The notes beneath the pieces are model-generated. The model saw nothing but the letters and a program-made list of their open reading frames with translations. It had not been told where the DNA came from and made no database searches. 64,000 bases of DNA from Chthoniobacterales bacterium (GTDB taxonomy: Bacteria; Verrucomicrobiota; Verrucomicrobiia; Chthoniobacterales; Chthoniobacteraceae): contig JBBQZX010000002.1 of the NCBI GenBank assembly GCA_038207335.1, positions 256,001-320,000 on the forward strand. Reading direction: 5' to 3'. The position numbers and the translations under genes are program-made. Each line of letters begins with the position of its first letter. The first letter of the stretch is position 1. Positions 4,151 through 62,537 of this stretch are shown in pieces.

Positions 4151-4166
4151 TTATTGGGGAGTCTAA

Positions 4167-4192
4167 TGGCTGATGGCTGATGGCTGATGGCT
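4167..4192. repeat. Heptamer tandem repeat (TGATGGC)
   Basis: atggc tgatggc tgatggc tgatggc tg, intergenic. Confidence 0.8.
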
Positions 4193-4256
4193 GTTACAGC
4201 GGGGTCATCGGGGGCGTTAAAGCAATCACATTTCAGCAATCACGCAGCGCGAAAGA

Positions 4257-43832: not shown

Positions 43833-46790
<2,958 letters not shown>

Positions 46791-46894
46791 AGCCACCGTC
46801 GCCAGCGGCAATGAGCAGGGGCGGCGAGACGAACATCTCCCCCGCGCCCGCCCAAGCATGGCTCCCGCCAAGGGACGCCAGCGAACGGCACGCC

Positions 46895-47083
46895 GATCCC
46901 CGAGATCCGCACGGGGACCTTCGAGATCTGCACGGGGATTTCTAAAATCGGCACGAGGATCGTCTAAATCTGCGCGGGGATTTTTAAAATCGGCACGGGG
47001 ATCGTCGCAATCCGCACGCCGATCTTTAAAATCGGCACGAAGATTTTGTTAATCTTCGTGCCGATTACAAGAATCCTTGTGTA
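46895..47083 (+). repeat. Array of nine degenerate 21-bp tandem repeats (GAT-N7-ATC core)
   Basis: Units start at 46895, 46916, 46937, 46958, 46979, 47000, 47021, 47042 and 47063; example unit GATTTTTAAAATCGGCACGGG. Confidence 0.92.
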
Positions 47084-47166
47084 ATGTTCCACACCTTTTC
47101 CACCCTCAAACATAGGCAACATGCCCTTTATGTTCCACAAACCCCACCCAAGCACTCCCCCTCCCC

Positions 47167-47190
47167 CTTCAACGCCGCACCCGTCGCCCG
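47167..47190 (+). repeat. 24-bp dispersed motif, copy 1
   Basis: CTTCAACGCCGCACCCGTCGCCCG; 23/24 identical to 57479-57502 on the minus strand. Confidence 0.9.
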
Positions 47191-47339
47191 CCCCGCCATT
47201 GAGAACAATGCGCACGCTTTCCCGCTCGCTTCGGGCAGTCCAATCGGAAGGCAGATGGGGGGAGATTTTGAAGCGAGTTTGGACGACGGCGCTGACGGAC
47301 TCGGTGGTGACGCATCACTGGGAGCCGTCGTGGCGGGGC

Positions 47340-47369
47340 TTGACGGGGGGTTTTCGCGTCCCCTAGCAT
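47340..47369 (+). promoter_or_regulatory. Putative sigma70 promoter of accBC
   Basis: TTGACG-N18-TAGCAT. Confidence 0.6.
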
Positions 47370-47402
47370 CCGCGACTCATCCAACCAAAACACCCCACGC
47401 AC

Positions 47403-47855
47403 TTGGACTTAAAAGATATCAAGGAGCTCATAGCTCTGATGAAAAAGAACGATCTCTCGGTCTTCAAAATGGAGAACGAGGGATTCAAAATTACGCTGAA
47501 GAAGGGGTGTGATTTTCAACCGCAAATCGTCGCCGCCGCTCCGCAACAATTCGCCCCGCCCGCCGCGCCCGCGGCAACTCCCGCCGGAGCGCCCGCCGCG
47601 GCGGCCGAGGCTGAGAAGCTGCGCGAGATCAGTTCGCCGATGGTCGGCACATTTTACGGTGCACCGTCGCCGGAGTCAGCGAGCTACGTGAGCCCGGGGC
47701 AGGAGGTGACGGAGGACACGGTGGTATGCATCATTGAGGCGATGAAGGTGATGAATGAGATCAAGGCCGAGTGCCGCGGAATCATCGCGGAGGTCGTCGC
47801 GGAGAGCGGAAAACCGGTGCAGTTCGGGCAAGCGCTGTTCCGGCTGAAGGCGTAA
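47403..47855 (+). CDS. accB: Biotin carboxyl carrier protein
   Basis: [20 protein letters not shown] start. Confidence 0.96.
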
Positions 47856-49223
47856 ATGTTCTCCAAAGTCCTGATCGCCAATCGCGGCGAAATCGCCCTG
47901 CGCGTGATCCGCGCGTGCAAGGAACTGGGGATCAAAACGCTGGCGGTTTATTCCGAGGCGGACGTGGATTCGCTGCATGTGCAGCTCGCGGATGAGGCGA
48001 TTTGCATCGGGCCGGCGCTGAGTTCGCAGAGCTATTTGAAGATCGACCGGATCATCAGCGCGGCGGAAATCGGCAATGTGGATGCGATCCATCCGGGCTA
48101 CGGATTCCTCTCCGAGAACGCCCACTTCGCGGATGTGTGCGCAAGCTGCAATATCAAATTCATCGGGCCGCCCGCCGACGCGATCCGCAAGATGGGCGAC
48201 AAAAATATCGCGCGCGCGACCGCGCGAAAAGCCGGAGTGCCCGTGACGCCCGGCAGCGACGGACTCGTCGAGACGGAGCAGGAGGCGCTGAAGGTCGCGA
48301 AGAAAATCGGATACCCGGTGATGATCAAAGCGGTCGCCGGCGGAGGAGGAAAAGGGATGCGCGCCGCGCACAACGACGTGTCGCTTGTGCAGGGTTTTCA
48401 CGGTGCGCGGATGGAGGCGGAGAAGGCATTCGGCAACGCGGGCGTCTATATCGAGAAGCTGATCGAGAACCCGCATCATGTGGAATTTCAAGTCATGGCC
48501 GACTCGCATGGCGATGTCGTCCACATCGGTGAGCGCGACTGCTCGATGCAGCGGCGCAATCAGAAGATAATCGAGGAAACACCGTCGCCACTGATGACCG
48601 AGGGCCTGCGGAAGAAGATGGGCGCGGCCTCGGTGAAGCTGGCGTCGTCGGTGGATTACATCGGTGCCGGAACGATGGAGTATCTCGTGGATGACCGCGG
48701 GAATTTCTACTTCATGGAGATGAACACGCGCATCCAGGTCGAGCACACGATCACCGAGGAGGCATACGGCATCGATCTCGTGAAAGAGCAACTCAAGGTC
48801 GCAGCAGGCGAATCGCTCTCAAATTTCGTCCGCAACGCGAAGCTCAAATACCACGCGATTGAGTGCCGTGTGAACGCCGAGGACCCGTTCAACAACTTCC
48901 AGCCGAGCCCCGGCAAGATCGACCTCTACTACGCGCCGGGCGGCCGCGGCATTCGCATCGACTCGCACGCCTACTCCGGCTACACGGTGCCGCCGCACTA
49001 CGACTCGATGATCGCGAAAATCATCGCCACCGGCACGACGCGAAACAATGCGATCGACCGGATGCGCCGCGCCCTCGGCGAATATCTCGTGCGCGGGATC
49101 AAGACCACGATCCCTTTTCAAGAGACGATCATGCGCGACCCGGATTTCATCCGCGGAAAGTACGACACGAGCTTTGTCGGAAAGCTCATCGAGTCCGGCG
49201 TCGCAAAGCTGCGCCACGGCTAA
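47856..49223 (+). CDS. accC: Biotin carboxylase
   Basis: [36 protein letters not shown]. Confidence 0.98.
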
Positions 49224-49237
49224 GCGTGAAGAGCGCC

Positions 49238-49810
49238 TTAGCGCTCCCAGCTCCAGTGAAACATGCTCTTGATCGCCTGCCGGCGGAGAGCAGCGAAGTC
49301 GTCCTTTTGCGCGGTGACTAGGAGCAGGAGCGAGTCGGATGGATAAAGATCGACGATCGAGATCGAGGTGGAAAAGCGGCTTGCCTGCGAGAGGTAGCTG
49401 AATTGCAACTCGCGGCTCGAGACATTGCGCAGCGAGAAGGGGCATGTGACTTCCTCGAGGTAGGTCACCTCCGTCGCATCGCTCGGCAGGAAGCTCTTCA
49501 CCCATTTCGTCAGGTCTTCGAAGTCCGGGGTGAGCGGAGGCGGTTGCGCGGCTTTGCGATCCACGAGTTCGAGATCGACGGCTGCCTGAGTCAGCTCCTG
49601 CGGGTATAGGGTGAGGTGCTTTCCTCCTCCGCTCATCTTCCACTCGGAGGGCGGCTGCCAGGCGACCTTCTCGGCACCATCGGTAAAGTTGACGACGGGA
49701 ACCGCTAACCCCTCGAGTTCACGAGTCCCTGAGATCGGGGTCAGATCAAGCGCGAGCAGCAGCGGGGCGGAGGCGATGCAAAAGAGGAAGGGTAGGACGA
49801 GACTTTTCAT
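49238..49810 (-). CDS. Secreted hypothetical protein
   Basis: Signal peptide MKSLVLPFLFCIASAPLLLA; starts 4 bp after the PilX-like gene ends. Confidence 0.72.
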   Translation of the reverse strand: MKSLVLPFLFCIASAPLLLALDLTPISGTRELEGLAVPVVNFTDGAEKVAWQPPSEWKMSGGGKHLTLYPQELTQAAVDLELVDRKAAQPPPLTPDFEDLTKWVKSFLPSDATEVTYLEEVTCPFSLRNVSSRELQFSYLSQASRFSTSISIVDLYPSDSLLLLVTAQKDDFAALRRQAIKSMFHWSWER

Positions 49811-49814
49811 GATT

Positions 49815-51773
49815 TCAGCGAAGCACCCAACGACCGCGCTCGTAAATCCGGGCAACGTGGAAGCCGGGTGGGTTGCGATCGGACAGGAGCGGATCGTAAT
49901 ACCAGTGGCGATCAGGCGCGCCGTAGCTGGCCGCACCCCACGGTTGAGTCGCCTCTTCGCTATCATAGAGAAGCGCTGTGGCACCGTAGATCGTGGCATA
50001 TTTTCCGGCCCACTTTTCGTGGAAACGGACAAAGTTCTCGATGCCACCGCTGTAGTTGCCACTGCCGGTGCGGGTGGGAACATTGCCCGCTACGATGGCC
50101 GTATTGATGGTCGTTGGAGTCGAGACACGGCTTGTGAGGGCCAAATCAGAATTCGCATCGTTCCATGCGTTGGAGAGAATGTTTACCGCGTCACCAACGA
50201 CGGAGGACGGGGGCCGGACGTAGGAACCCACGACCGGGCTTGGATTCGCGTTGTTATTGTAGCTGGAGGCAGTGTTTGAAGGGGGCTGCACAGTGTTGCT
50301 TCCGGTATTGTAGTCACCCGCGATGTAAACGCTATGCGGACTCACGACCGTGAAGCCCGCTGTGGGAAGAACTCCACCTTTCACCAGCTTGACACCGCGG
50401 GCTCCGCCACTGGTGACAGTTTTAACCAATGCACCTGTGGAAGAATTGACAATTTTCGTCTGGTTTCCGCTCGCTACAGTCGTGCCAGTGTTGCCGGAGC
50501 TGGTATCTTTGATATACAGGGTAATTCCGTCACCGCCGCCGACTCGGTCTTTGAGAGTCCCAGCGTCGGAAGAAGTTTTTACCGAGCTGACATCGAGGAC
50601 AACCAGCTTCACATAGTCGGCGTCTCGGACGTCTTTGATGGCTGTATTTGTCGTGATTGCTGCCTTGAGCGCAACATACTCTGCCGAAGTCGAGGCAAGC
50701 GGAGTAGCGGATGTCCCGGCGTAAATAGTGACACTGTTGTCTGCGGCCACTACGACGCGATAATCGGAGTTCGCGGATAGGCGTTCGCTGCCGGTTTGAT
50801 CGTCGTTCAAATAGGGATCAATTTGGAGAGGGTCAGTGCCGGTGGTGCCGCTCGTTACCTTTTCCTCAATGATTTCATGATAGCCATCATTGTTCTTGTT
50901 GCCGTCTGAGTCGGTGTCGTTCAGCGATGAATCATCCAAGAAGTTTGGGTCCATCAAGTTCGTACTCACGTCCAACAGCTTCTGTTCACTTCCACGATGC
51001 GGGGGATTATTGATGTCCCAGTTGTCGCCAAACCCGTTGGTTGGAATGGTAGGAGCGGTGCCTGGTCTGCGCGAGTCCGCGACGCGATAGTCCATCGTCT
51101 GAGTCCCCAAGAATGTAACGTCTTTCTGAAAATGGAGGAAGTCGTGGGCTGTGTATAGGTCACCTCCAATGTAAGCAGTTCCGCCGATATACATGGGAGC
51201 TCCGGGATGGAATTCGGTGACGGGTTGCGCTCCGAAGTAAAAGTTATCGAAAATACTACGACCGCTTCGGACGAAACTCCGCTTGATGGTGACCGTACTC
51301 ATCCCTCGCATCACCGGAAAATTGACTGCCACAGTGGCTACATAGTAAAGCCGTGTGCGCTGCGTCCAGTTCGTGCCGCTTTCCGCGGCGGGCCTCGCGC
51401 TCGGTGCGGTTAATTCGACAAGAAGGGGGGTCGCTGCCAGTACTGTTGGAGCCGATACGAGCGAAATGTTGGTCGGCGCCGCGATCACAGCAGTCGTGGG
51501 AGCACTGATCTTTGTAGCCAGTGCGCTGTTGGTTAACCCGTCCCGGCGATCCGTGGCGTCGGTCACGGAGATCATCGCTTGGCGCCACTGCTCATAAACC
51601 TGTTCGATCACGGCATCGCCGTATGCCAGCGCCTCGGCGCGATGCACCGTTCTTCCTGCCATTCGCGTGTTATTGGCTGTGACCGAGAGCATGATTGCCA
51701 CGAGGCTGCTCACGGCCGCCATGGTGAACATCACCGCGAGCAAGCTACTGCCGGATTGGGAGTTGTTTTTCAT
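49815..51773 (-). CDS. Large PilX/GspK-like minor pseudopilin
   Basis: MKNNSQSG|SSLLAVMFTMAAV (class III-like signal without Glu5); C-terminal NYSGGIENFVRFHEKW. Confidence 0.8.
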   Translation of the reverse strand: MKNNSQSGSSLLAVMFTMAAVSSLVAIMLSVTANNTRMAGRTVHRAEALAYGDAVIEQVYEQWRQAMISVTDATDRRDGLTNSALATKISAPTTAVIAAPTNISLVSAPTVLAATPLLVELTAPSARPAAESGTNWTQRTRLYYVATVAVNFPVMRGMSTVTIKRSFVRSGRSIFDNFYFGAQPVTEFHPGAPMYIGGTAYIGGDLYTAHDFLHFQKDVTFLGTQTMDYRVADSRRPGTAPTIPTNGFGDNWDINNPPHRGSEQKLLDVSTNLMDPNFLDDSSLNDTDSDGNKNNDGYHEIIEEKVTSGTTGTDPLQIDPYLNDDQTGSERLSANSDYRVVVAADNSVTIYAGTSATPLASTSAEYVALKAAITTNTAIKDVRDADYVKLVVLDVSSVKTSSDAGTLKDRVGGGDGITLYIKDTSSGNTGTTVASGNQTKIVNSSTGALVKTVTSGGARGVKLVKGGVLPTAGFTVVSPHSVYIAGDYNTGSNTVQPPSNTASSYNNNANPSPVVGSYVRPPSSVVGDAVNILSNAWNDANSDLALTSRVSTPTTINTAIVAGNVPTRTGSGNYSGGIENFVRFHEKWAGKYATIYGATALLYDSEEATQPWGAASYGAPDRHWYYDPLLSDRNPPGFHVARIYERGRWVLR

Positions 51774-52639
51774 TCGGTAAGATCGACAGGTGCGGGTTGT
51801 GTGCGGACTGAAATGACTGACTGCAAAGTTGTAGCTCCCCCTAGGAAACGCCTCGCCGTCCACTTCGAATCATAAAACTCAAGTGAAATCCTCATATCCA
51901 ACGATGGATCGGTGCCGATCAGTGCAAAGGGCTTCGGAGATGTGATCCCGGTGCGAACGATGGAGTAAGTGTTTTTTGCACCTCCCGTAAAATTCGGGTG
52001 GAAACGGAGTTCGTTGTTTTGAACAGAATAGGCCGCCTGCCGAAAGAAGTAGCCGGTAGTGATGTTGGTGGAGGTATTGCCAAAAGTGAAACCGAGCGGC
52101 GTGCTGACGGTGAAGCGTCCGTTCGGGCTGCCGCTGGTAGGCGTAGCATTGATGGCTGTAATGGTGAGCTTCGCGTCCACCAGAGGAACCCACACTTTGT
52201 CTCCGATCTGAGGGACGTAGGTCACCACTCCGTTCGGCGCAAAATTAAACGTCAGCGTTGTGGAACTCGGAGTCGTATTCGCGGTGAGTTGGAAGGGTCC
52301 ACCCGCAGTCCGCCAAAAACGGATTCCATTGGCTCGGTTGCTGATTTTTAGACCCGTGAGTGGATCGGTGTCTCCCGAAGTGCCGGCAAGAAAGTCGGTA
52401 TAGGTGCTGCCTGTGCAGGTTTGCAGCTTCACGGGGGATCCAGATGCGTGAATGGCCGCCATCATGCGCTGCTCCGCGCTCATCACCCCTTCATGACTGT
52501 GATTTGTGGCGAGGTTTTTTGCGATGAGCCTCGAAGAGGTCCATCCGAAGCTCAGCAGTGCGATCCCTAGAGTGGAAAATGCGGCTGTGGTCATGATCAG
52601 CTCCACCAAGGTGAATGCTGACTGGGATTTCGTTTTCAT
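51770..52639 (-). CDS. Prepilin-type N-terminal cleavage/methylation protein (PilW/GspJ-like)
   Basis: MKTKSQSA|FTLVELIMTT. Confidence 0.85.
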   Translation of the reverse strand: MKTKSQSAFTLVELIMTTAAFSTLGIALLSFGWTSSRLIAKNLATNHSHEGVMSAEQRMMAAIHASGSPVKLQTCTGSTYTDFLAGTSGDTDPLTGLKISNRANGIRFWRTAGGPFQLTANTTPSSTTLTFNFAPNGVVTYVPQIGDKVWVPLVDAKLTITAINATPTSGSPNGRFTVSTPLGFTFGNTSTNITTGYFFRQAAYSVQNNELRFHPNFTGGAKNTYSIVRTGITSPKPFALIGTDPSLDMRISLEFYDSKWTARRFLGGATTLQSVISVRTQPAPVDLTE

Positions 52640-52654
52640 CGGTGCGCGGCTGCT

Positions 52655-53140
52655 TCAGATGCTGTCGGTCACACGAAGCGTGCTAAGACTGACTGAGTAT
52701 GTCGTGCCGTGGTAAATGTAGGTCGTGGTCACAATCGCGCGTGCGGTGCGCGCATTGATTGCCGTGACGACGGTACGCCGAGTCGCCGCGACGGGGGCAT
52801 CGTACTCAGTCATAGGGCTCGAAAGACCGCTTTGCTTATTAAAAACGTCGTCGTTGAGGGTGAGGTTGTTGGTCTTCGTCCCTGCCGCGAGCACGGCGGG
52901 CAAGCCGGTGGACGTATTCCAAGCCGTCGTGAGAACCTCGTCGATGCGCTGCTGAGTGGCTGCGAGCGCGAGGGTGCGCAGGCGGGAGGAAAAGGCGTAG
53001 CGGTTGAGCTGCGTCATCGCCAGCAGGGAGCCGCAGATGAAAAAGGCGACGATGCTCGATGCGATGAGCAGCTCGACGAGCGTGAAGCCCGAGGCAGTCG
53101 ATTTTCGCAGATGAAACCCGGATCGCGGGAGAGCAGTCAT
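52655..53140 (-). CDS. Prepilin-type N-terminal cleavage/methylation protein (PilV/GspI-like)
   Basis: ASG|FTLVELLIASSIV. Confidence 0.87.
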   Translation of the reverse strand: MTALPRSGFHLRKSTASGFTLVELLIASSIVAFFICGSLLAMTQLNRYAFSSRLRTLALAATQQRIDEVLTTAWNTSTGLPAVLAAGTKTNNLTLNDDVFNKQSGLSSPMTEYDAPVAATRRTVVTAINARTARAIVTTTYIYHGTTYSVSLSTLRVTDSI

Positions 53141-53197
53141 AGCCGCTGTAAAGCAGCCGGCTTGCCAAGTTCGCGGGAACTTTGCCTGCGAGGATTG

Positions 53198-53947
53198 CTA
53201 CTTCACCGCGTCGCTCACTGCCGCGCCGGTGTATTCCCGGTTCATGCGCGAGATGACGCCGATCGGAATTTCCGCCGGACAGACCGCCTCGCATTCGTAG
53301 TGGTTCGAGCAGTTGCCAAAGCCTTCCTCATCCATCTTCCGCACCATTCGGAGCGCGCGCTCGTTGCGCTCAGGCTGGCCCTGCGGGAGGAGTGCGAGAT
53401 GTGAGATTTTTGCGCCGACGAATAGCATCGCGGAGGCGTTCGGGCACGCAGCTACGCACGCGCCGCACTGGATGCACGCGGCGGCTTCCATCGCCTCGTC
53501 GGCGGCCGTCTTGCCGATGAGGATCGCATTTGCATCCTGCGCGCCGCCGACCCGCGCCGTCACGAAGCCACCCGCCTGCTGCACGCGATCCATCGCCTTT
53601 CGATCGCAAACCAAGTCCCGCACCACAGGGAACGCCCGCGCGCGGAATGGCTCGATGAACACCGTCTCGCCGTCCTTGAAATTCCGCATGTAAAGCTGGC
53701 ACGTGGTGGTCGCACTCGTCCCATGCGGGATGCCGTTGATCGTCAGCGAGCACGTCCCGCAGATCCCCTCGCGGCAGTCGTGATCGAACGCAATCGGCGC
53801 CTCGCCTTTCGCCTCCAGCCCTTCATTCACAATGTCCAGCATCTCGAGAAACGACGCATCCGCGGGGATGTTGCGCGCTTCGTAATCGACGAGCGCCCCC
53901 TTGGCTTTCGCGTCTTTCTGACGCCAGACTTTCAGCTTCAGGTTCAT
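53198..53947 (-). CDS. sdhB: Succinate dehydrogenase/fumarate reductase Fe-S subunit
   Basis: [32 protein letters not shown]. Confidence 0.96.
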
Positions 53948-55864
53948 CTATTTGTAGCTCCGAGTCGCGAGGTGAATGTTGTCGAACTCCAGCGGCTCGA
54001 CGTGCCGCTCAGGCTTCACGCCGTCCCCCTTGAACTCCCACGCCGCGACGTGCGCGAACTCCTCATCGTTCCGCTTCGCTTCTCCGTCCGCTGTCTGGAA
54101 TTCCTCACGAAAATGCCCACCGCACGACTCCCGCCGCTCCAGTGCGTCCAAGCACATCAGCTCGCCGAACTCCAGGAAATCCGCGACCCGCCCCGCCTTC
54201 TCCAACGCCTGATTCAGCTCCTCGCCGCTGCCAGTCACGTTCACATTTTGCCAGAACTCCTCGCGCAACGTCGGGATGCGCTTTAGCGCCCGCTGCAACG
54301 ACTTCTCAGTCCGCCCCATCCCGCACAAATCCCACATCAGCAGCCCCAACTCCCGGTGAAACGAATCCACCGAGCGCCGCCCCTTGATCCCCAGCAGCCG
54401 CGCCGTCCGCGCCTTCACCTCGGCCTCTGCCTTCTGAAACTCCGCGTGATCCGCCGCCGGCCGCTTCCCGAGCTGATCCGCCAGATAATTCCCGATCGTG
54501 CTCGGCAGCACGAAATACCCGTCCGCCAGCCCTTGCATCAGTGCGCTCGCTCCGAGCCGATTCGCGCCGTGGTCGGAAAAATTCGCCTCTCCCAGCACGA
54601 ACATCCCCGGAATCGTGGACATCAAATCGTAATCCACCCACAGCCCGCCCATCGTGTAGTGCACCGCCGGGAAAATCCGCATCGGCGTGCGATACGCATT
54701 CTCCCCGGTGATCTGCTCGTACATCTCGAAAAGATTCCCGTACCGCTCCCGCACCACATCCTCGCCCAGCCGCTTGATCGCATCCGCAAAGTCCAGATAC
54801 ACCCCGAGCCCCGTTTCCCCCACGCCGCGCCCCTCATCGCACACCTGCTTCGCCGCGCGCGATGAAATATCCCGCGGCGCCAGATTCCCGTAGCTCGGAT
54901 ATTTCCGCTCCAAATAATAATCCCGCTCGCCCTCCGGAATCTCCCCCGGCGCCCGCTTGTCCCCCTTCTTCACCGGCGCCCACACCCGCCCGTCATTCCG
55001 CAACGACTCGCTCATCAGGGTCAGCTTGCTCTGGTAGTCACCCGTCACCGGGATGCACGTCGGGTGAATCTGCGTGTAGCACGGGTTCGCGAACATCGCT
55101 CCCTTCTTGTAGGCCCGCCACGTCGCCGTCACGTTGCACCCCTTCGCGTTGGTGGAAAGATAGAACACATTCCCATACCCACCCGTCGCGAGGATCACGC
55201 AGTCCCCAGCGTGCGAGCTGATCTCCCCCGACACCAAGTCCCGCACCACAATCCCCTTCGCGTGCCCGTCCACGAGCACCACATCCAGCATCTCCGTCCG
55301 CGGATACATCGTCACTGACCCGCGTGCGATCTCCTTGTTCAGCGAAGAGTAAGCCCCCAGCAAAAGCTGCTGCCCCGTCTGACCCCGTGCGTAGAAAGTC
55401 CGCGACACCTGCGCCCCGCCGAACGACCGATTCGCCAGCAGCCCACCGTATTCCCGCGCAAACGGCACACCCTGCGCCACACACTGGTCGATGATATTCG
55501 CGCTCACCTCCGCCAACCGATACACATTCGCCTCCCGCGACCGGAAATCCCCGCCCTTCACCGTGTCGTAAAACAGCCGGAACACCGAGTCCCCGTCATT
55601 TTGGTAGTTCTTCGCCGCATTGATCCCCCCCTGCGCCGCGATCGAGTGCGCCCGCCGCGGCGAGTCTTGGTAGCAGAAGCACTTCACCTTGAACCCCAGT
55701 TCCCCCAGCGTCGCCGCCGCCGCCGCCCCTGCGAGTCCCGAGCCCACCACTATGATCTCATACTTCCGTTTGTTCGCCGGATTGATCAGCTTCGACTCAA
55801 ACTTATATTTCTCCCACTTCGTCTCCAGCGGGCCGTCCGGAATCTTGGAATTGAGAGCGCTCAT
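53948..55864 (-). CDS. sdhA: Succinate dehydrogenase/fumarate reductase flavoprotein
   Basis: [32 protein letters not shown]; start MSALNSK at 55864. Confidence 0.97.
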
Positions 55865-56568
55865 TGAGAAATCGTCGCAAAATTGATCCAACCCATCCAC
55901 ACCGCCAGCGGCACAGACACAAAACCCGCAAAAATCACCCAAGCCAGCACGCGACCTCCCACCCGCAGCGGCCCCAGCGTCTTCCGCGAAGTCAGCCCCA
56001 GCGTCTGCAGCAGCGACGAAAACCCGTGGCTCAAGTGCAGCGCCAGCAAAAACAGCCCCAGCACATAAAATCCCGTCACCACCGGATGCCCGCGGAACCC
56101 CCGAATCACCATCGAATGCACATCATACTCCGTCGCCAGCGTCCCCCCCTCCGACACTGCCCGCAGCGCCGGATCCACCGTCCGCGTCGTGAAATGCAGA
56201 ACATGAAAGACCACAAATCCTAGCACGATTAGCCCCGACACTGCCATCAACCTCGACGCCCACCCCGCCTCCCGGTAGGTCCGCGTCGCATACCCCTCCG
56301 GTCGCGCCGCCCGATTCTGCACCACGAGCGCGATCGTCACCCCGATGTGAGTTAAAAAGCACGCGATCAGGAACACCCGCACCACCCATAGCACGCGCGG
56401 CATCGAGTGGAGGAAAACGGCGTACCCATTGATCTGCTTCGGCTGCGAAAAGATCTGCAAATTCCCCGCCATGTGCCCGATCACATAAGCCACCAGCACG
56501 ATCCCCGTCAGAGCCACCACCCATTTCTTGCCGATCGAAGAAGAGAAAAACGCGGAGATGGGATTCAC
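55861..56568 (-). CDS. sdhC: Succinate dehydrogenase cytochrome b subunit
   Basis: [28 protein letters not shown]; five TM helices. The start is GTG 56568 or TTG 56583. Confidence 0.93.
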
Positions 56569-56729
56569 GAGAAAGAGCCGCAAAATTTACCGAGCCTCAG
56601 CCTCTTGAAAAGCACGAAATTGCCCCGGCCTCAAACTTCCTGCGCTCCGCGTTTTAGAGGGGAAGCGCGGGGAACCTCTTCCCGGAAGCAGTCACCGCGA
56701 CGCTCGACTCCGGTCGCGGCAAGGCGTGG

Positions 56730-57203
56730 TCAAGGAGTTTGGTCTTGGAGTTGGTAGAAGACATCGGTGCGGATTTTTGATGGGTCGGTGTTCCAGCTTT
56801 CGTCCCAGTGGCCATAGACTTCCCATGAGATGCCCGTGAGGAGATGTCCGTGCTTGGCGCACCAGTGGCGAAGACTGGTGTGGGCTTCGGAGAGTCGTTG
56901 GTAGGGGCCGAGGTGGACGGTGGTGGCGACGCGCCCCGCGGGCAACTGAGAGCAATGGATGCGGTCGTTGCCGGTAAAGGGTGCGAATACCTCGGCACCG
57001 ACCTCGACCGAACCTTGGGCGTCCAGATACAAAGCGATATGGCGGCCTGGCTTTGGCAGGCCAGCGGAGCGGGCGAATGCCCAGACTTCGCCGCACGCTG
57101 CGGGGACAAATCTCGAAAGCTCTCGGGGATGCACGCGGTCACGCACTACGGCCGTAAGCGTCACTTCTGAGTTCGTTATCGTCCGGGGTTGTTGCGTAGT
57201 CAT
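56730..57203 (-). CDS. GyrI-like small-molecule-binding protein
   Basis: LPAGRVATTVHLGPYQRL...SWEVYGHW...RTDVFY. Confidence 0.85.
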   Translation of the reverse strand: MTTQQPRTITNSEVTLTAVVRDRVHPRELSRFVPAACGEVWAFARSAGLPKPGRHIALYLDAQGSVEVGAEVFAPFTGNDRIHCSQLPAGRVATTVHLGPYQRLSEAHTSLRHWCAKHGHLLTGISWEVYGHWDESWNTDPSKIRTDVFYQLQDQTP

Positions 57204-57412
57204 TCTCGTGGTCTGCGTGCGATTCCAAAGGCTAGGAAAAGAACTACGAATGCGCCAGCGGAGACTGCGGCTCTGGCCCATGTGGAAGTAAGCTCGTAGC
57301 GGAGGGACATGAGCGATGCGAATAAAATGATGCCGATGACGACCGGCCAGACTCGCCGGGTGCTTTTGCTAGCCTGTGGTGATGGGGATGAGGTGTGCGT
57401 AGGTGTAATTAT
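57200..57412 (-). pseudogene. Small two-TM protein lacking a canonical start (ATA at 57412)
   Basis: Open frame ...RRVWPVVIGIILFASLMSLRYELTSTWARAAVSAGAFVVLFLAFGIARRPRE*; its stop overlaps the GyrI ATG (ATGA). Confidence 0.55.
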
Positions 57413-57478
57413 GAGGGAAGCTGCCTAGCGTGAAGACGACTGCGACGGTGGACGGGGGGAGGTGGAGGGTCGCTGGGT

Positions 57479-57502
57479 CGGGTGACGGGTGCGGCGTTGA
57501 AG
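57479..57502 (-). repeat. 24-bp dispersed motif, copy 2
   Basis: Minus strand CTTCAACGCCGCACCCGTCACCCG. Confidence 0.9.
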
Positions 57503-57569
57503 AGAAGGTGGCGATTTTGGAAAGTTGGGGGGAGTTTACAGAGAGGTTTTGGGGTGTGGTTATTTATCC

Positions 57570-57758
57570 GAAGTTTTCATGAGTGCCCCGGAAGTTCTTC
57601 CGCGGGCCTCGTGAGTTCTCATAGTTGCCCCGGAAGTTCTTTCGCAGCGGTCATGCATTTTCATGATGGCCCCGGAAGTTCTTCCGCAGGAGTCGTGCAT
57701 TTTCACGATGGCCCCGGAGCAGTCTCCCCGGGGTTTGAGAGTTCTAGGAGAAGCGGGG
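57570..57758. repeat. Array of about nine 21-bp units with alternating A/B (42-bp) higher-order period
   Basis: For example TGCATTTTCATGATGGCCCCG / GAAGTTCTTCCGCAGGAGTCG, repeated in exact 21-bp phase. Confidence 0.9.
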
Positions 57759-57890
57759 GCAGGAATCGTTGAGCGCGTCATAATAGTTGGAGCGGCGGCG
57801 ATTACTGTGAAGGGCCGGGTATTTGTTTGTTGAGCAGCAACACGTTTAATCGCTCACACTTCTTAGCTCTTAGCCATCGGATATCAGCTA

Positions 57891-59045
57891 TCAGCCGAGT
57901 GCTTCGGCTAAGATGGCGACGGTGCGGTCTAGCTCGGCTTCGGTGTTGTAGAAGTGGGGGCTGAGGCGGAGGTAGTCGCGGCCTTCGCGGTCGTGGCGCA
58001 GGGAGGCGTAGATGTTGGCCTTTTCTAATATGCCGAAGAGTTCGGTGGAGCTGGCGGTGTCGTGGCGGAAGGTGGTGGTGCTGTGGGCGGCGGGGCCGCT
58101 GCGGGGGCCGAGGACGCGAAATCCGAGCGGGTCGAGGGCGCGGAGGAGGTGCGATTTTAACTCCCAAAGACGGGCGGCGATGGGCTCGATGCCGTGGCTG
58201 GCGATGAGGCGGAGGGCGGCGGTCATGCCGTAGATACCGGCGATGTTGAGGACGCCGGGCTCGTAACGCTGGGCGGTGGGGACGAAGTGGATTTCGTCTT
58301 GGGTCTGGAATTGGGGGGAGCGGACGTTCCATGCGCCGAGGAGGGTGGGGCGGAGGAGGTCGAAGTGGTCTTTTTTGACGAAGACGATGCCGATGGCCAT
58401 GGGGCCGAGCATCCATTTGTGGGCGTCGGCGCTGAGGAAATCGACGTGCTGGACGGAGAGCGGGAAGGCGCCGAGGGTCTGGATGGCGTCGAGGGAGAAG
58501 AGGACGCCGTGGGAGTGGAGGAGGGCGCCGATGGAGTCGATATCGATGCGGTATCCGGTAAAGAAGTGGGCGCTGGCGAGGGCGACGAGGCGGGTGCGAG
58601 GGGTGAGGGCGGCGGCGATGAGGTCGGGGGTGATGGCGCCGGGTTGGTCGGGCTGGAGGTAGCGGACGGTGACGCCGCGGCGGCGGAGGTCGAGCCACGG
58701 ATAGACGTTGGCGGGGTAGTCGCCGTGGTAGCAGAGGAGTTCGTCGCCGGACAGCCAGGGGATGCCATTGGCGATGAGGCTGAGGCCGAGGGAGGTGGGG
58801 CCGAGGAGGGCGATTTCGTCGGGGTCGGCGCCGATGAATGTGGCGCATGTCTTGCGGGCCTGGAGGATGTCGCGGAGGACGCGGTCGAACTCCTGGGGGC
58901 CCTCGGCGGACTGGCGGGTGTAGTCGCAGATGGCGTCGGCGACGATGCGCGGGAGAGGGCAGACGCCGGCGTGTGCGAGGAAGATTTTGTCGCGGGCGAC
59001 GGGGAATTGGCGGAGGCGCTCGGCTTCGTCGGGGAAGAGGGTCAT
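57891..59045 (-). CDS. Class V PLP aminotransferase (cysteine desulfurase/lyase-like)
   Basis: DAIQTLG, SADAHKWMLGP, RYEPG, RLSPHFYNT. Confidence 0.92.
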   Translation of the reverse strand: MTLFPDEAERLRQFPVARDKIFLAHAGVCPLPRIVADAICDYTRQSAEGPQEFDRVLRDILQARKTCATFIGADPDEIALLGPTSLGLSLIANGIPWLSGDELLCYHGDYPANVYPWLDLRRRGVTVRYLQPDQPGAITPDLIAAALTPRTRLVALASAHFFTGYRIDIDSIGALLHSHGVLFSLDAIQTLGAFPLSVQHVDFLSADAHKWMLGPMAIGIVFVKKDHFDLLRPTLLGAWNVRSPQFQTQDEIHFVPTAQRYEPGVLNIAGIYGMTAALRLIASHGIEPIAARLWELKSHLLRALDPLGFRVLGPRSGPAAHSTTTFRHDTASSTELFGILEKANIYASLRHDREGRDYLRLSPHFYNTEAELDRTVAILAEALG

Positions 59046-62343: not shown

Positions 62344-62537
62344 GGGGCGCGGAACGTAGAAGCGACTTCGTGCAGATTCCAGTAAGTATTCTTCAAGCGT
62401 AGAAGCGATCGGCAGAAACCCGAGTGCGACATCGACAGGAGCGGGCGGAATGGCGTGGGCTCTCAGCCGCCCATCACCGCAAAATATGCTTGCAACTTCA
62501 CCTCCACACATTAATTCTCCGGATTCCCTATCGACAA

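Follow-up and report, generated by a model that had tools for sequence, protein, structure and literature searches.

Two intergenic loci within the window (the whole 64,000-nucleotide stretch of Chthoniobacterales DNA analysed here) carry a phased array of 21-bp units, a C/A-rich spacer and a 24-bp motif, the two motifs lying in opposite orientation. The question that they raise is whether such loci are platforms for a regulator, sites of recombination or the relics of a mobile element, and how their arrays and motifs came to stand together.

Layout of the two loci

The layout had been proposed from the letters alone, and shuffles, autocorrelation and TRF confirm it at both loci (Table 1). Neither array is a chance pattern: at lag 42 the autocorrelation reaches 0.72 in each, where the maximum of 2000 shuffles is 0.38-0.40, and the TRF scores are 179 (array 1) and 178 (array 2). 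Both repeat mainly every 42 bp, as paired 21-bp units, and the value for lag 21 at locus 2 is just 0.41. About nine 21-bp units had been claimed for each locus; this holds at locus 1, where the last of nine is inverted and forms a perfect hairpin of 16 bp (47030-47066), but locus 2 has about eight, arranged as 4 x 42 bp with two unlike 21-bp halves in each unit. The spacers have the lengths first given for them, 83 and 67 bp, and are C/A-rich as described (71% and 73% C+A); each element as a whole is non-coding and measures some 250-310 bp. The 24-mers (23/24 identical) are the only two matches in the window at 3 mismatches or fewer, a result obtained in 0/100 shuffles. Their longest common exact run is 19 bp, and since longer runs of 25 and 26 bp link each copy to one on another contig, the identity of the window pair is not exceptional. 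Contigs of a sequencing run that is possibly the source of the DNA span both sites with 0 differences, which disfavours misassembly, though this support is not independent.

Table 1. Features at and around the two window loci
Feature	Position	Strand	Basis or remark
secA, upstream of element 1	43833..46790	+	Pfam
Array 1, nine 21-bp units, 42-bp dimer pattern	46883..47071	+	TRF, autocorrelation
C/A-rich spacer 1	47084..47166	+	
24-mer copy 1, head of dispersed repeat, subfamily B; putative left inversion breakpoint	47167..47190	+	
Candidate toxin-antitoxin upstream relic	47199..47237	+	sequence likeness
Inverted segment accB, accC ... sdhB, sdhA, sdhC, GyrI-like gene	47191..57478	.	gene order versus congeners
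accB	47403..47855	+	Pfam; sigma-70-like promoter 47340-47369
GyrI-like accessory gene, between motif 2 and sdhC	56730..57281	-	Pfam
24-mer copy 2; putative right inversion breakpoint	57479..57502	-	
C/A-rich spacer 2	57503..57569	-	
Array 2, four 42-bp units	57565..57732	-	TRF, autocorrelation
Class-V aminotransferase gene, upstream of element 2	57891..59045	-	Pfam
Third, degenerate repeat copy, subfamily A, without array	62399..62435	-	matrix score 30.1

Array 1 has relatives on contigs C31 and C22 (E 9e-24 and 4e-14) that share about the first two thirds of spacer 1, and neither continues into the motif. On contig C24 a further copy matches spacer 2 and runs on through the motif (79% over 159 bp, E 5e-26). 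The third repeat copy of the window sits at the 5' end of an rph-like ORF, and the GyrI-like gene is not found upstream of sdhC in genomes G005, G006 or G008. The upstream relic listed in Table 1 matches, at 90-91% over 31-33 bp, the region directly upstream of a yefM-yoeB-type pair in 3/150 family genomes, in one of which the antitoxin family behind this call was checked; the genes themselves are absent at the locus, and the resemblance suggests that it is likely to be what is left of a promoter/operator of this type.

The dispersed repeat and its arrays

The motif belongs to a repeat of 35-40 bp, of which a matrix search of the genome finds 73 copies; at stricter thresholds there are 71 matches, versus 0 in the reversed genome. 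Its 13-bp core, with 36 exact copies where 0.74-0.82 are expected, ranks first among the dispersed 13-mers found at at least 15 places. The repeat is nearly private to this genome. A 14-mer occurs 0-3 times in each of 40 relatives; the pattern of subfamily A, with 19 copies here, has 0 in 150 family genomes and 1 match in a collection of 185,579 species; scans of metagenomes found 0 and 1 matches, and one of viral sequences found 1. The consensus is weakly palindromic, with stems of just 5 bp and no terminal tag. Most copies are single-armed and array-free (48/54 tail matches are unpaired), and the tail occurs in both orientations around one methyltransferase-like gene and two short units of 245-283 bp with inverted 25-bp arms. 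No left arm is detectable in either window element, and no target-site duplication, sought as a direct repeat of at least 3 bp at symmetric ends, is seen at 3/3 double-armed units.

The early suggestion of a mobile relic is partly borne out by the collinear motif junctions shared with the congener G008: 6/6 are longer in this genome, by 59-357 bp, and 4/6 exceed their counterparts by >100 bp; among 293 control junctions 12.6% do. The stretches that contain arrays, like those with repeats, are longer here than in that congener. When seven in-gene copies were aligned to G008, at least two looked like native coding sequence, two were linker copies common to both genomes and 0 had a clean empty site.

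The loci had been described as an element present twice. The layout indeed occurs at both, but the genome contains 34 arrays of this type alongside the roughly 70 repeat copies, and periods of 22, 43 and 44 bp occur as well in related arrays. Seven of the 34 precede small helical/FN3-like genes and 27 are solo. The repeat caps 10/27 solo arrays, always pointing outward (0 inward), and 0/7 FN3-linked ones; with a matrix trained without array-adjacent copies, its frequency in array-free gaps is 15/563, giving a Fisher p of 1.4e-8 that is overstated because the copies are related to one another. When the window loci and two relatives found by BLAST are removed, 6/23 solo arrays remain capped. The idea of a dispersed family that keeps its period while its unit content differs, and in which array and motif are linked in a fixed orientation, is thus sustained.

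What the sequence-only reading had missed is that other arrays of this genome are linked to FN3-like genes, and that the segment described below is inverted. The FN3 label derives from an Atlas neighbour (0.91) with PF00041 in 32% of its members, and the family has no match in Pfam, NCBIfam or the PDB. Among the FN3-like loci listed for relatives, 16/28 have such an array at a score of at least 0.60. The FN3-linked arrays have the same periods and spacer layout as those of the window, and one on C22 is homologous to two solo arrays, that of C20 (E 2e-12), where the motif caps the side on which the FN3-like gene would be, and that of C3 (E 2e-11), which lies inside alaS. At the window loci, unlike the FN3-linked arrays, the gene is absent downstream, the private repeat caps the spacer and the caps mark an inversion. 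A survey of 150 family genomes turned up no FN3-linked array related to either window array. The motif is at 0/29 FN3-like loci (of 30, 29 being covered) and, in this genome, within 2 kb downstream of 1/8 FN3-like genes or fragments tested, so a full-length parent with array, gene and motif is not seen. We infer that the two window arrays are likely to have originated from FN3 modules, as copies that lack the gene.

An alternative is that arrays and repeat, as mobile relics with no tie to each other, both accumulate where the DNA behind a gene end is permissive. A strong array lies 5' of 7/73 motif copies, the other 66 having none, and 17/27 solo arrays are without the motif, as are both relatives of array 1 after their spacers. 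The same gaps also hold REP-like hairpins, attC pieces and toxin-antitoxin promoter relics, and G008 has 19 array-like stretches to 3 matrix matches (2.34 of 3.60 Mb covered). These counts do not support the motif and array as an obligate unit; the occurrence of the 24-mer apart from arrays, which had been named as evidence against the family, is found in part, the link nonetheless being oriented. Against independence stand this strict orientation and two array families that are co-linear through the motif, which implies that array and motif were copied together. We regard independent accumulation as a real but minor possibility.

Quite improbable is a selected regulatory platform, in which phased iteron- or centromere-like operators and a transcription-factor site would control the neighbouring genes. 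Periods of 21, 22, 42, 43 or 44 bp do come close to two or four turns of the helix, in orthologous arrays inside genes the period is the same though the units differ, and periodic shuffles seldom match the units of locus 1 in palindromic character (5/200). The units of locus 2, however, are no more palindromic than the null (39/200). The comparison of the secA-accB gap across relatives, recommended earlier, yielded no support: a 21- or 42-bp array follows secA in 0/17, all with 3' regions unlike element 1, and precedes accB in 0/3. The motif itself, being nearly genome-private, flanking unrelated genes in all orientations and lying inside coding regions in 18/73 matches, lends no support to a conserved protein platform.

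Inverted gene order between the motifs

The aminotransferase gene lies upstream of accB, within 1.2 kb, in 7/10 congeners (3 unresolved) and also in 4 other family genomes, or 11/40 in all, which means that accB-sdhC is inverted in this genome. The inverted segment is about 10.3 kb long, and in the two breakpoint intervals (548 and 1307 bp) the 19-bp run is the sole shared word of at least 11 bp, and is itself inverted. What is new here is this gene order in congeners, its inversion and the 24-mer as the one sequence of such length common to both breakpoint intervals. From the match of these sequences, it is likely that the two caps served as the crossover points; the exchange would have fallen within the 19 identical bases, as a one-off event on short homology and not as a regulated switch. 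These genomes are heavily shuffled and the motif is at 6/107 mapped breaks, so the inversion could have had another origin.

A dedicated recombinase site, with the 10.3-kb block as a switch, is very improbable, although the earlier proposal of a recombination site is upheld as far as the inverted gene order goes. The inverted copies bracket the inversion, and this is the only pair of linked breaks among 79 with the motif at both ends; the outer ends of the two double-armed short units are also swapped relative to their interior. On the other hand, motif junctions do not break more often than controls do (4/10 versus 58/191), and with 6/107 breaks this also rejects the motif as a general driver of rearrangement. 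A strand-changing joint is not listed in the contigs of runs X1-X3, in which rare variants are dropped (X2 has a small share of this DNA and does not cover motif 1). Integron att sites are unrelated, and none of ten tyrosine-recombinase matches has a copy with <2 mismatches inside 3 kb.

The search for a mobilising enzyme in this genome, which is 94.7% complete, found, among the enzyme families named in this report, no gene flanked by the repeat. PF13358 and PF02371 (IS630- and IS110-type transposases) have no match; the one PF01609 gene has a visible end that is unlike the repeat, as judged by eye; the flanks of 3/3 Y1 transposase matches (PF01797) are without a matrix match and carry other repeats; and the single reverse transcriptase has no repeat copy nearby.

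Comparison with known elements and the favoured reading

Several other identities were considered for the motif and rejected. It has a resemblance to a type I-C CRISPR repeat, but the units are head-to-tail and a simple finder (55-85-bp spacing) detected no array in the assembly. An ERIC-like layout, suggested by one viral-contig match, fitted loosely at 18 places, most of them coding, against 6 in the reversed genome. As for an integron att site, 17 attC matches and the region beside an IntI-like gene are unrelated to the motif; in the case of a tRNA end, the loop part varies among copies (judged by eye). The assembly has no full parS site, no promoter or terminator was found at the motif, and Rfam gave 0 window matches at the gathering score. 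RNA folding z-scores of -3.1 and -2.4 are not taken as evidence of RNA, since repeats inflate them.

Scarcely probable is a lost family of protein-coding genes as the source of the motif, with the elements as pieces of such a gene. The copies do vary in a codon-like way: pN/pS is about 0.5 in the forward frame, 0.5-0.6 in the antisense partner frame and 0.7-2.4 in the four remaining frames, and among 39 intergenic copies 48% of the codon differences that involve a single base are synonymous. Several genes also have in-frame copies, a MutL-like one being common to G008. But the period-3 column-permutation test is not significant (p 0.15), the predicted proteins of the genome include no parent gene, and stops in the frame of the motif number 3 and 4 in the window arrays. 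The stops are periodic and the periods of related arrays include 22, 43 and 44 bp; the arrays are not remnants of heptad-coding genes, an outcome that had been named as evidence against the family. That the heptad ORF has no usable Atlas match is no proof of absence.

Plasmid iterons and tandem-repeat centromeres are phased direct repeats of about 21-22 bp. The arrays here differ in being degenerate 42-bp dimers with different units at dozens of chromosomal loci, and those of the window have as neighbours secA, accB, the aminotransferase gene and the GyrI-like gene, with no Rep or partition gene beside them.

Prokaryotic MITEs, especially decayed families such as Coxiella QMITE1/2, offer a close parallel (PMC10969869). 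Like MITEs, the elements are non-coding, under 500 bp and present in tens of copies, many cut to one end, with inverted 25-bp arms in two units and insertions near gene ends (PMC10969869). They differ in being GC-rich and mostly single-armed, with no partner transposase found and no target duplication, a feature that decays with age, and in an interior that is often a helically phased array (PMC10969869). Rickettsia palindromic elements are alike in being lineage-restricted, in lying both between genes and, as it appears for the repeat here, in frame in unrelated genes, and in their conserved peptide reading, and unlike in their length (about 150 bp versus 35-40 bp here), the repeat here being weakly palindromic and array-coupled (PMC10969869). 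With the REP/TIR families and their RAYT/TIRYT HUH transposases (PMC3733652) are shared short extragenic repeats, mosaic intergenic regions and the three Y1 transposase matches. A REP, however, is by definition a palindrome of 20-40 bp that ends in an unpaired GTAG or CGTC tag (PMC3733652), and here there is no such tagged hairpin and the Y1 genes stand beside other repeats. No description of the element was found in the open-access literature covered.

The reading that we favour, at a probability of roughly 0.55, is that the loci are MITE-like, non-autonomous relics with borrowed arrays, and that one passive recombination between their inverted motif copies flipped 10.3 kb. An array and spacer would probably have been taken from the region upstream of a small FN3-like gene and joined to one copy of the 35-40-bp repeat that multiplied in this genome; recombination of two inverted copies would then likely have turned the DNA between them. 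By analogy with MITEs, and given that the tail forms both arms of two units, the repeat may be an element end acted on in trans.

A new mobile class, with the helically phased array as its working part, is unlikely. A protein, possibly the helical/FN3-like product itself, would coat the array whatever its sequence, while a recombinase would act at the short, lineage-specific end; the element would spread, enter proteins such as alanyl-tRNA synthetase in frame, renew its units at a fixed period and reorder the chromosome.

On the favoured, MITE-like reading the inversion is itself an ordinary repeat-mediated rearrangement. FN3-linked arrays are widespread and unexplained, and this genome shows gene-less spread of such an array, copied with its spacer, capped by a private end-repeat and held to its period even in coding sequence. 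The matter to explain becomes less the regulator that reads the array than the process that copies it and keeps its period. Concrete substrates for tests are two short units with both arms, two array families in which the copied stretch includes the motif, and one inversion whose breakpoints are predicted.

Two array loci and the repeat that ends them

The layout proposed in the sequence-only reading, an array followed by a C/A-rich spacer and a 24-mer motif, was borne out on re-inspection of the window at both locus 1 (after secA) and locus 2 (after the class-V aminotransferase gene), and the motif has exactly two matches within the window, in inverted orientation, a pair that shuffled sequence did not produce. 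Both arrays reach their autocorrelation maximum at lag 42 (0.72 each, versus a shuffle maximum of 0.38-0.40); the "about nine 21-bp units" claimed for each hold at locus 1 but not at locus 2 (see table). Contigs of run X1, whose sample may be the source of the DNA, span both sites with zero differences. The yefM-yoeB-type relic at locus 1 suggests that such intergenic gaps took in several insertions. The complete 16-bp near-palindrome from the secA 3' region of the relative G031 was not found in the assembly.

The motif is the head of a dispersed repeat with two subfamilies; the window copies belong to B, and A has a longer tail. Its 13-bp core occurs in 36 exact copies where 0.74-0.82 are expected, ranking first among dispersed 13-mers of the genome, and the repeat matrices give 71 matches versus none in the reversed genome at stricter thresholds, or 73 (55 intergenic) at the listing setting. 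In 40 relatives a 14-mer has 0-3 copies each; the subfamily-A pattern has 19 copies here, none in 150 family genomes and one match in the species collection. The congener G008, read over 2.34 of its 3.60 Mb, has three matrix matches and shares the MutL-like copy, which suggests that the repeat predates the split of the two genomes and then expanded in this one. For the A tail there are 54 matches, compared with 2 when the genome is reversed; it supplies the arms at either end of two units (283 and 245 bp long), brackets the methyltransferase-like gene on C20, and is unpaired at the other 48 matches. Differences among copies look codon-like, but the permutation test does not reach significance (p 0.15), and this genome yielded no parent gene.

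Features at the window loci and elsewhere (contigs without genome label belong to the genome under study)
Feature	Position	Strand	Remarks
Array 1	locus 1		nine 21-bp units, final unit inverted; family with C31 and C22:72271
Array 2	locus 2		four 42-bp units; family with C24
Array family	C21, C1, C9		
Array family	C20, C3, C22		C22 array is FN3-linked
yefM-yoeB-type relic	window 47199-47237	+	upstream sequence; genes themselves absent
9-bp word, spacer 1	window 47085, 47131	+	half of 16-bp near-palindrome 3' of secA in G031 (L010)
Degenerate 7-bp repeats	window 57855-57893	-	directly 3' of aminotransferase stop
Cleaner 7-bp array	window 4166-4193		
CTCTG/CTCTA-type word	window 57535-57546	-	
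Three genes, pilin-type N-termini (by eye)	window 49815-53140	-	between accC and sdhB, within inverted block
Motif in MutL-like gene	C41 near 19088	-	in frame, within linker; gene presumably MutL-like, from its N-terminal sequence
Methyltransferase-like gene (244 aa)	C20:78223-79236		between two outward-pointing repeat copies, like a small cassette
18-bp motif match, viral contig	L215:700-900		in short element with long inverted ends; single match, may be chance
alaS (1196 aa)	C3:60994-64584	-	long in-frame insert; 21-bp array homologous to FN3-linked array
alaS insert, G008	C2 near 74700		matching place, units differ
In-frame arrays	C1:266854-267114; C5:196793-197096		
Integron, IntI-like gene	C3:278554-281018		attC word matched 17 times across contigs, many at contig ends

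Arrays, motif and FN3-like genes

The two window arrays proved, in a genome-wide scan, to be members of a much larger set. The 34 counted comprise 41 stretches found by autocorrelation, less nine judged by eye to be coding or low-complexity, plus two added by BLAST from the window loci. Periods are mostly 21, 42 and 63, with none at 31, 32, 52 or 53. Seven arrays stand 5' of small genes (~150-220 aa) or their fragments, one of them (C28) included by layout alone, since phmmer gave no link; the remaining 27 are solo and fall into sequence families. One array (C13) is made of REP-like units. The CTCTG/CTCTA-type word lies outward of 21/65 arrays, other genomes included, versus 40/525 gaps, but was chosen by eye and is thus a lead only.

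The nearest named Atlas cluster of the small array-linked proteins is FN3 (0.91), and Pfam, NCBIfam and PDB gave no match, so that "FN3-like" serves only as a lead. One such protein was matched in 57/150 family genomes. Of 30 extracted loci 29 were inspected, one from this genome itself; an upstream array scoring at least 0.60 is present at 16 of the remaining 28, in three cases with periods of 22, 43 or 44, which DNA geometry fits better than codons do. A small gene, its product starting with MPFDP or MAFDP and in some cases containing collagen-like repeats, lies 3' of many FN3-like genes (L051-L070). No FN3-linked homologue of either window array was found among the 150 family genomes. The in-frame arrays on C1 and C5 have G008 orthologues with equal period, equal place and unrelated units, for which either in-place turnover or repeated insertion would account.

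That motif and array form one element was upheld in part: the link is real and oriented, but a strong array lies 5' of the motif at only 7 of 73 copies (3' at none; 24/979 gaps for comparison). With matrices trained on array-free copies only, the motif points outward at 10/27 solo arrays, inward at none, and is found at 0/7 FN3-linked arrays and 15/563 array-free gaps (p 1.4e-8, a value that treats related copies as independent, which they are not). The count becomes 6/23 when the window loci and the two BLAST-added arrays are dropped. Two of the ten (C22:72271 and C29) match by the tail only, the former on the far side of its array. At the solo C20 array the motif occupies the side held by the FN3-like gene at C22.

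Insertions and the accB-sdhC inversion

Ten motif junctions could be mapped against G008; six are collinear, each 59-357 bp longer in the genome under study, and four are broken, including both in the window. Six array-only junctions are collinear, three being intergenic and ~390-435 bp longer here and three being shared in-gene arrays (control gaps, 133/191 collinear). At ~80% identity the alignment does not place insertion ends, and the lengths indicate that motif and arrays are both insertions.

In 7/10 congeners and four other family genomes (11/40) accB has the aminotransferase gene 0.1-1.2 kb upstream, in the same orientation; in the three remaining congeners the region is divided between contigs or the match is absent. 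The accB-to-sdhC block then continues intact in the congeners G005 and G008. Here the block is reversed and accB comes after secA. The only word of at least 11 bp common to both breakpoint intervals is a 19-bp run of the motif, inverted, and of 79 pairs of linked breaks no other carries the motif at each end. The junction between the upstream side of sdhC and the secA region stems from another, separate break. Since only 6/107 mapped breaks carry the motif, it is not a general driver of rearrangement. The run contigs list no other orientation of the block, although a rare variant could escape them.

Relation to known elements and proposed origin

In working, the window elements resemble a decayed MITE or RPE-type repeat, as portrayed in PMC10969869. 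A MITE would carry a target duplication, and none was seen at the double-armed units; paired arms occur in few units, and none of the 10 tyrosine-recombinase, 3 Y1 and 1 DDE matches or the single reverse transcriptase in this genome is flanked by the repeat. The elements are therefore not filed as MITEs. Tagged REPs were rejected by comparison with PMC3733652. A CRISPR array, an integron site and an iteron origin were rejected as identities too. The literature search found no published description of the element; the private cap, its orientation and the inversion are new here.

The earlier suggestion of a non-autonomous mobile relic is retained as a MITE-like reading, with the lack of target duplication against it and, in its favor, two array families that align through the motif, which argues for copying as a unit. 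We put at roughly 55% the probability that these are non-autonomous, MITE-like relics, two inverted copies of which underwent a single recombination. Short units ending in the private repeat would have been copied in trans, some together with the array and spacer from an FN3-like module. A single recombination via short homology would have taken place between two inverted copies lying close together.
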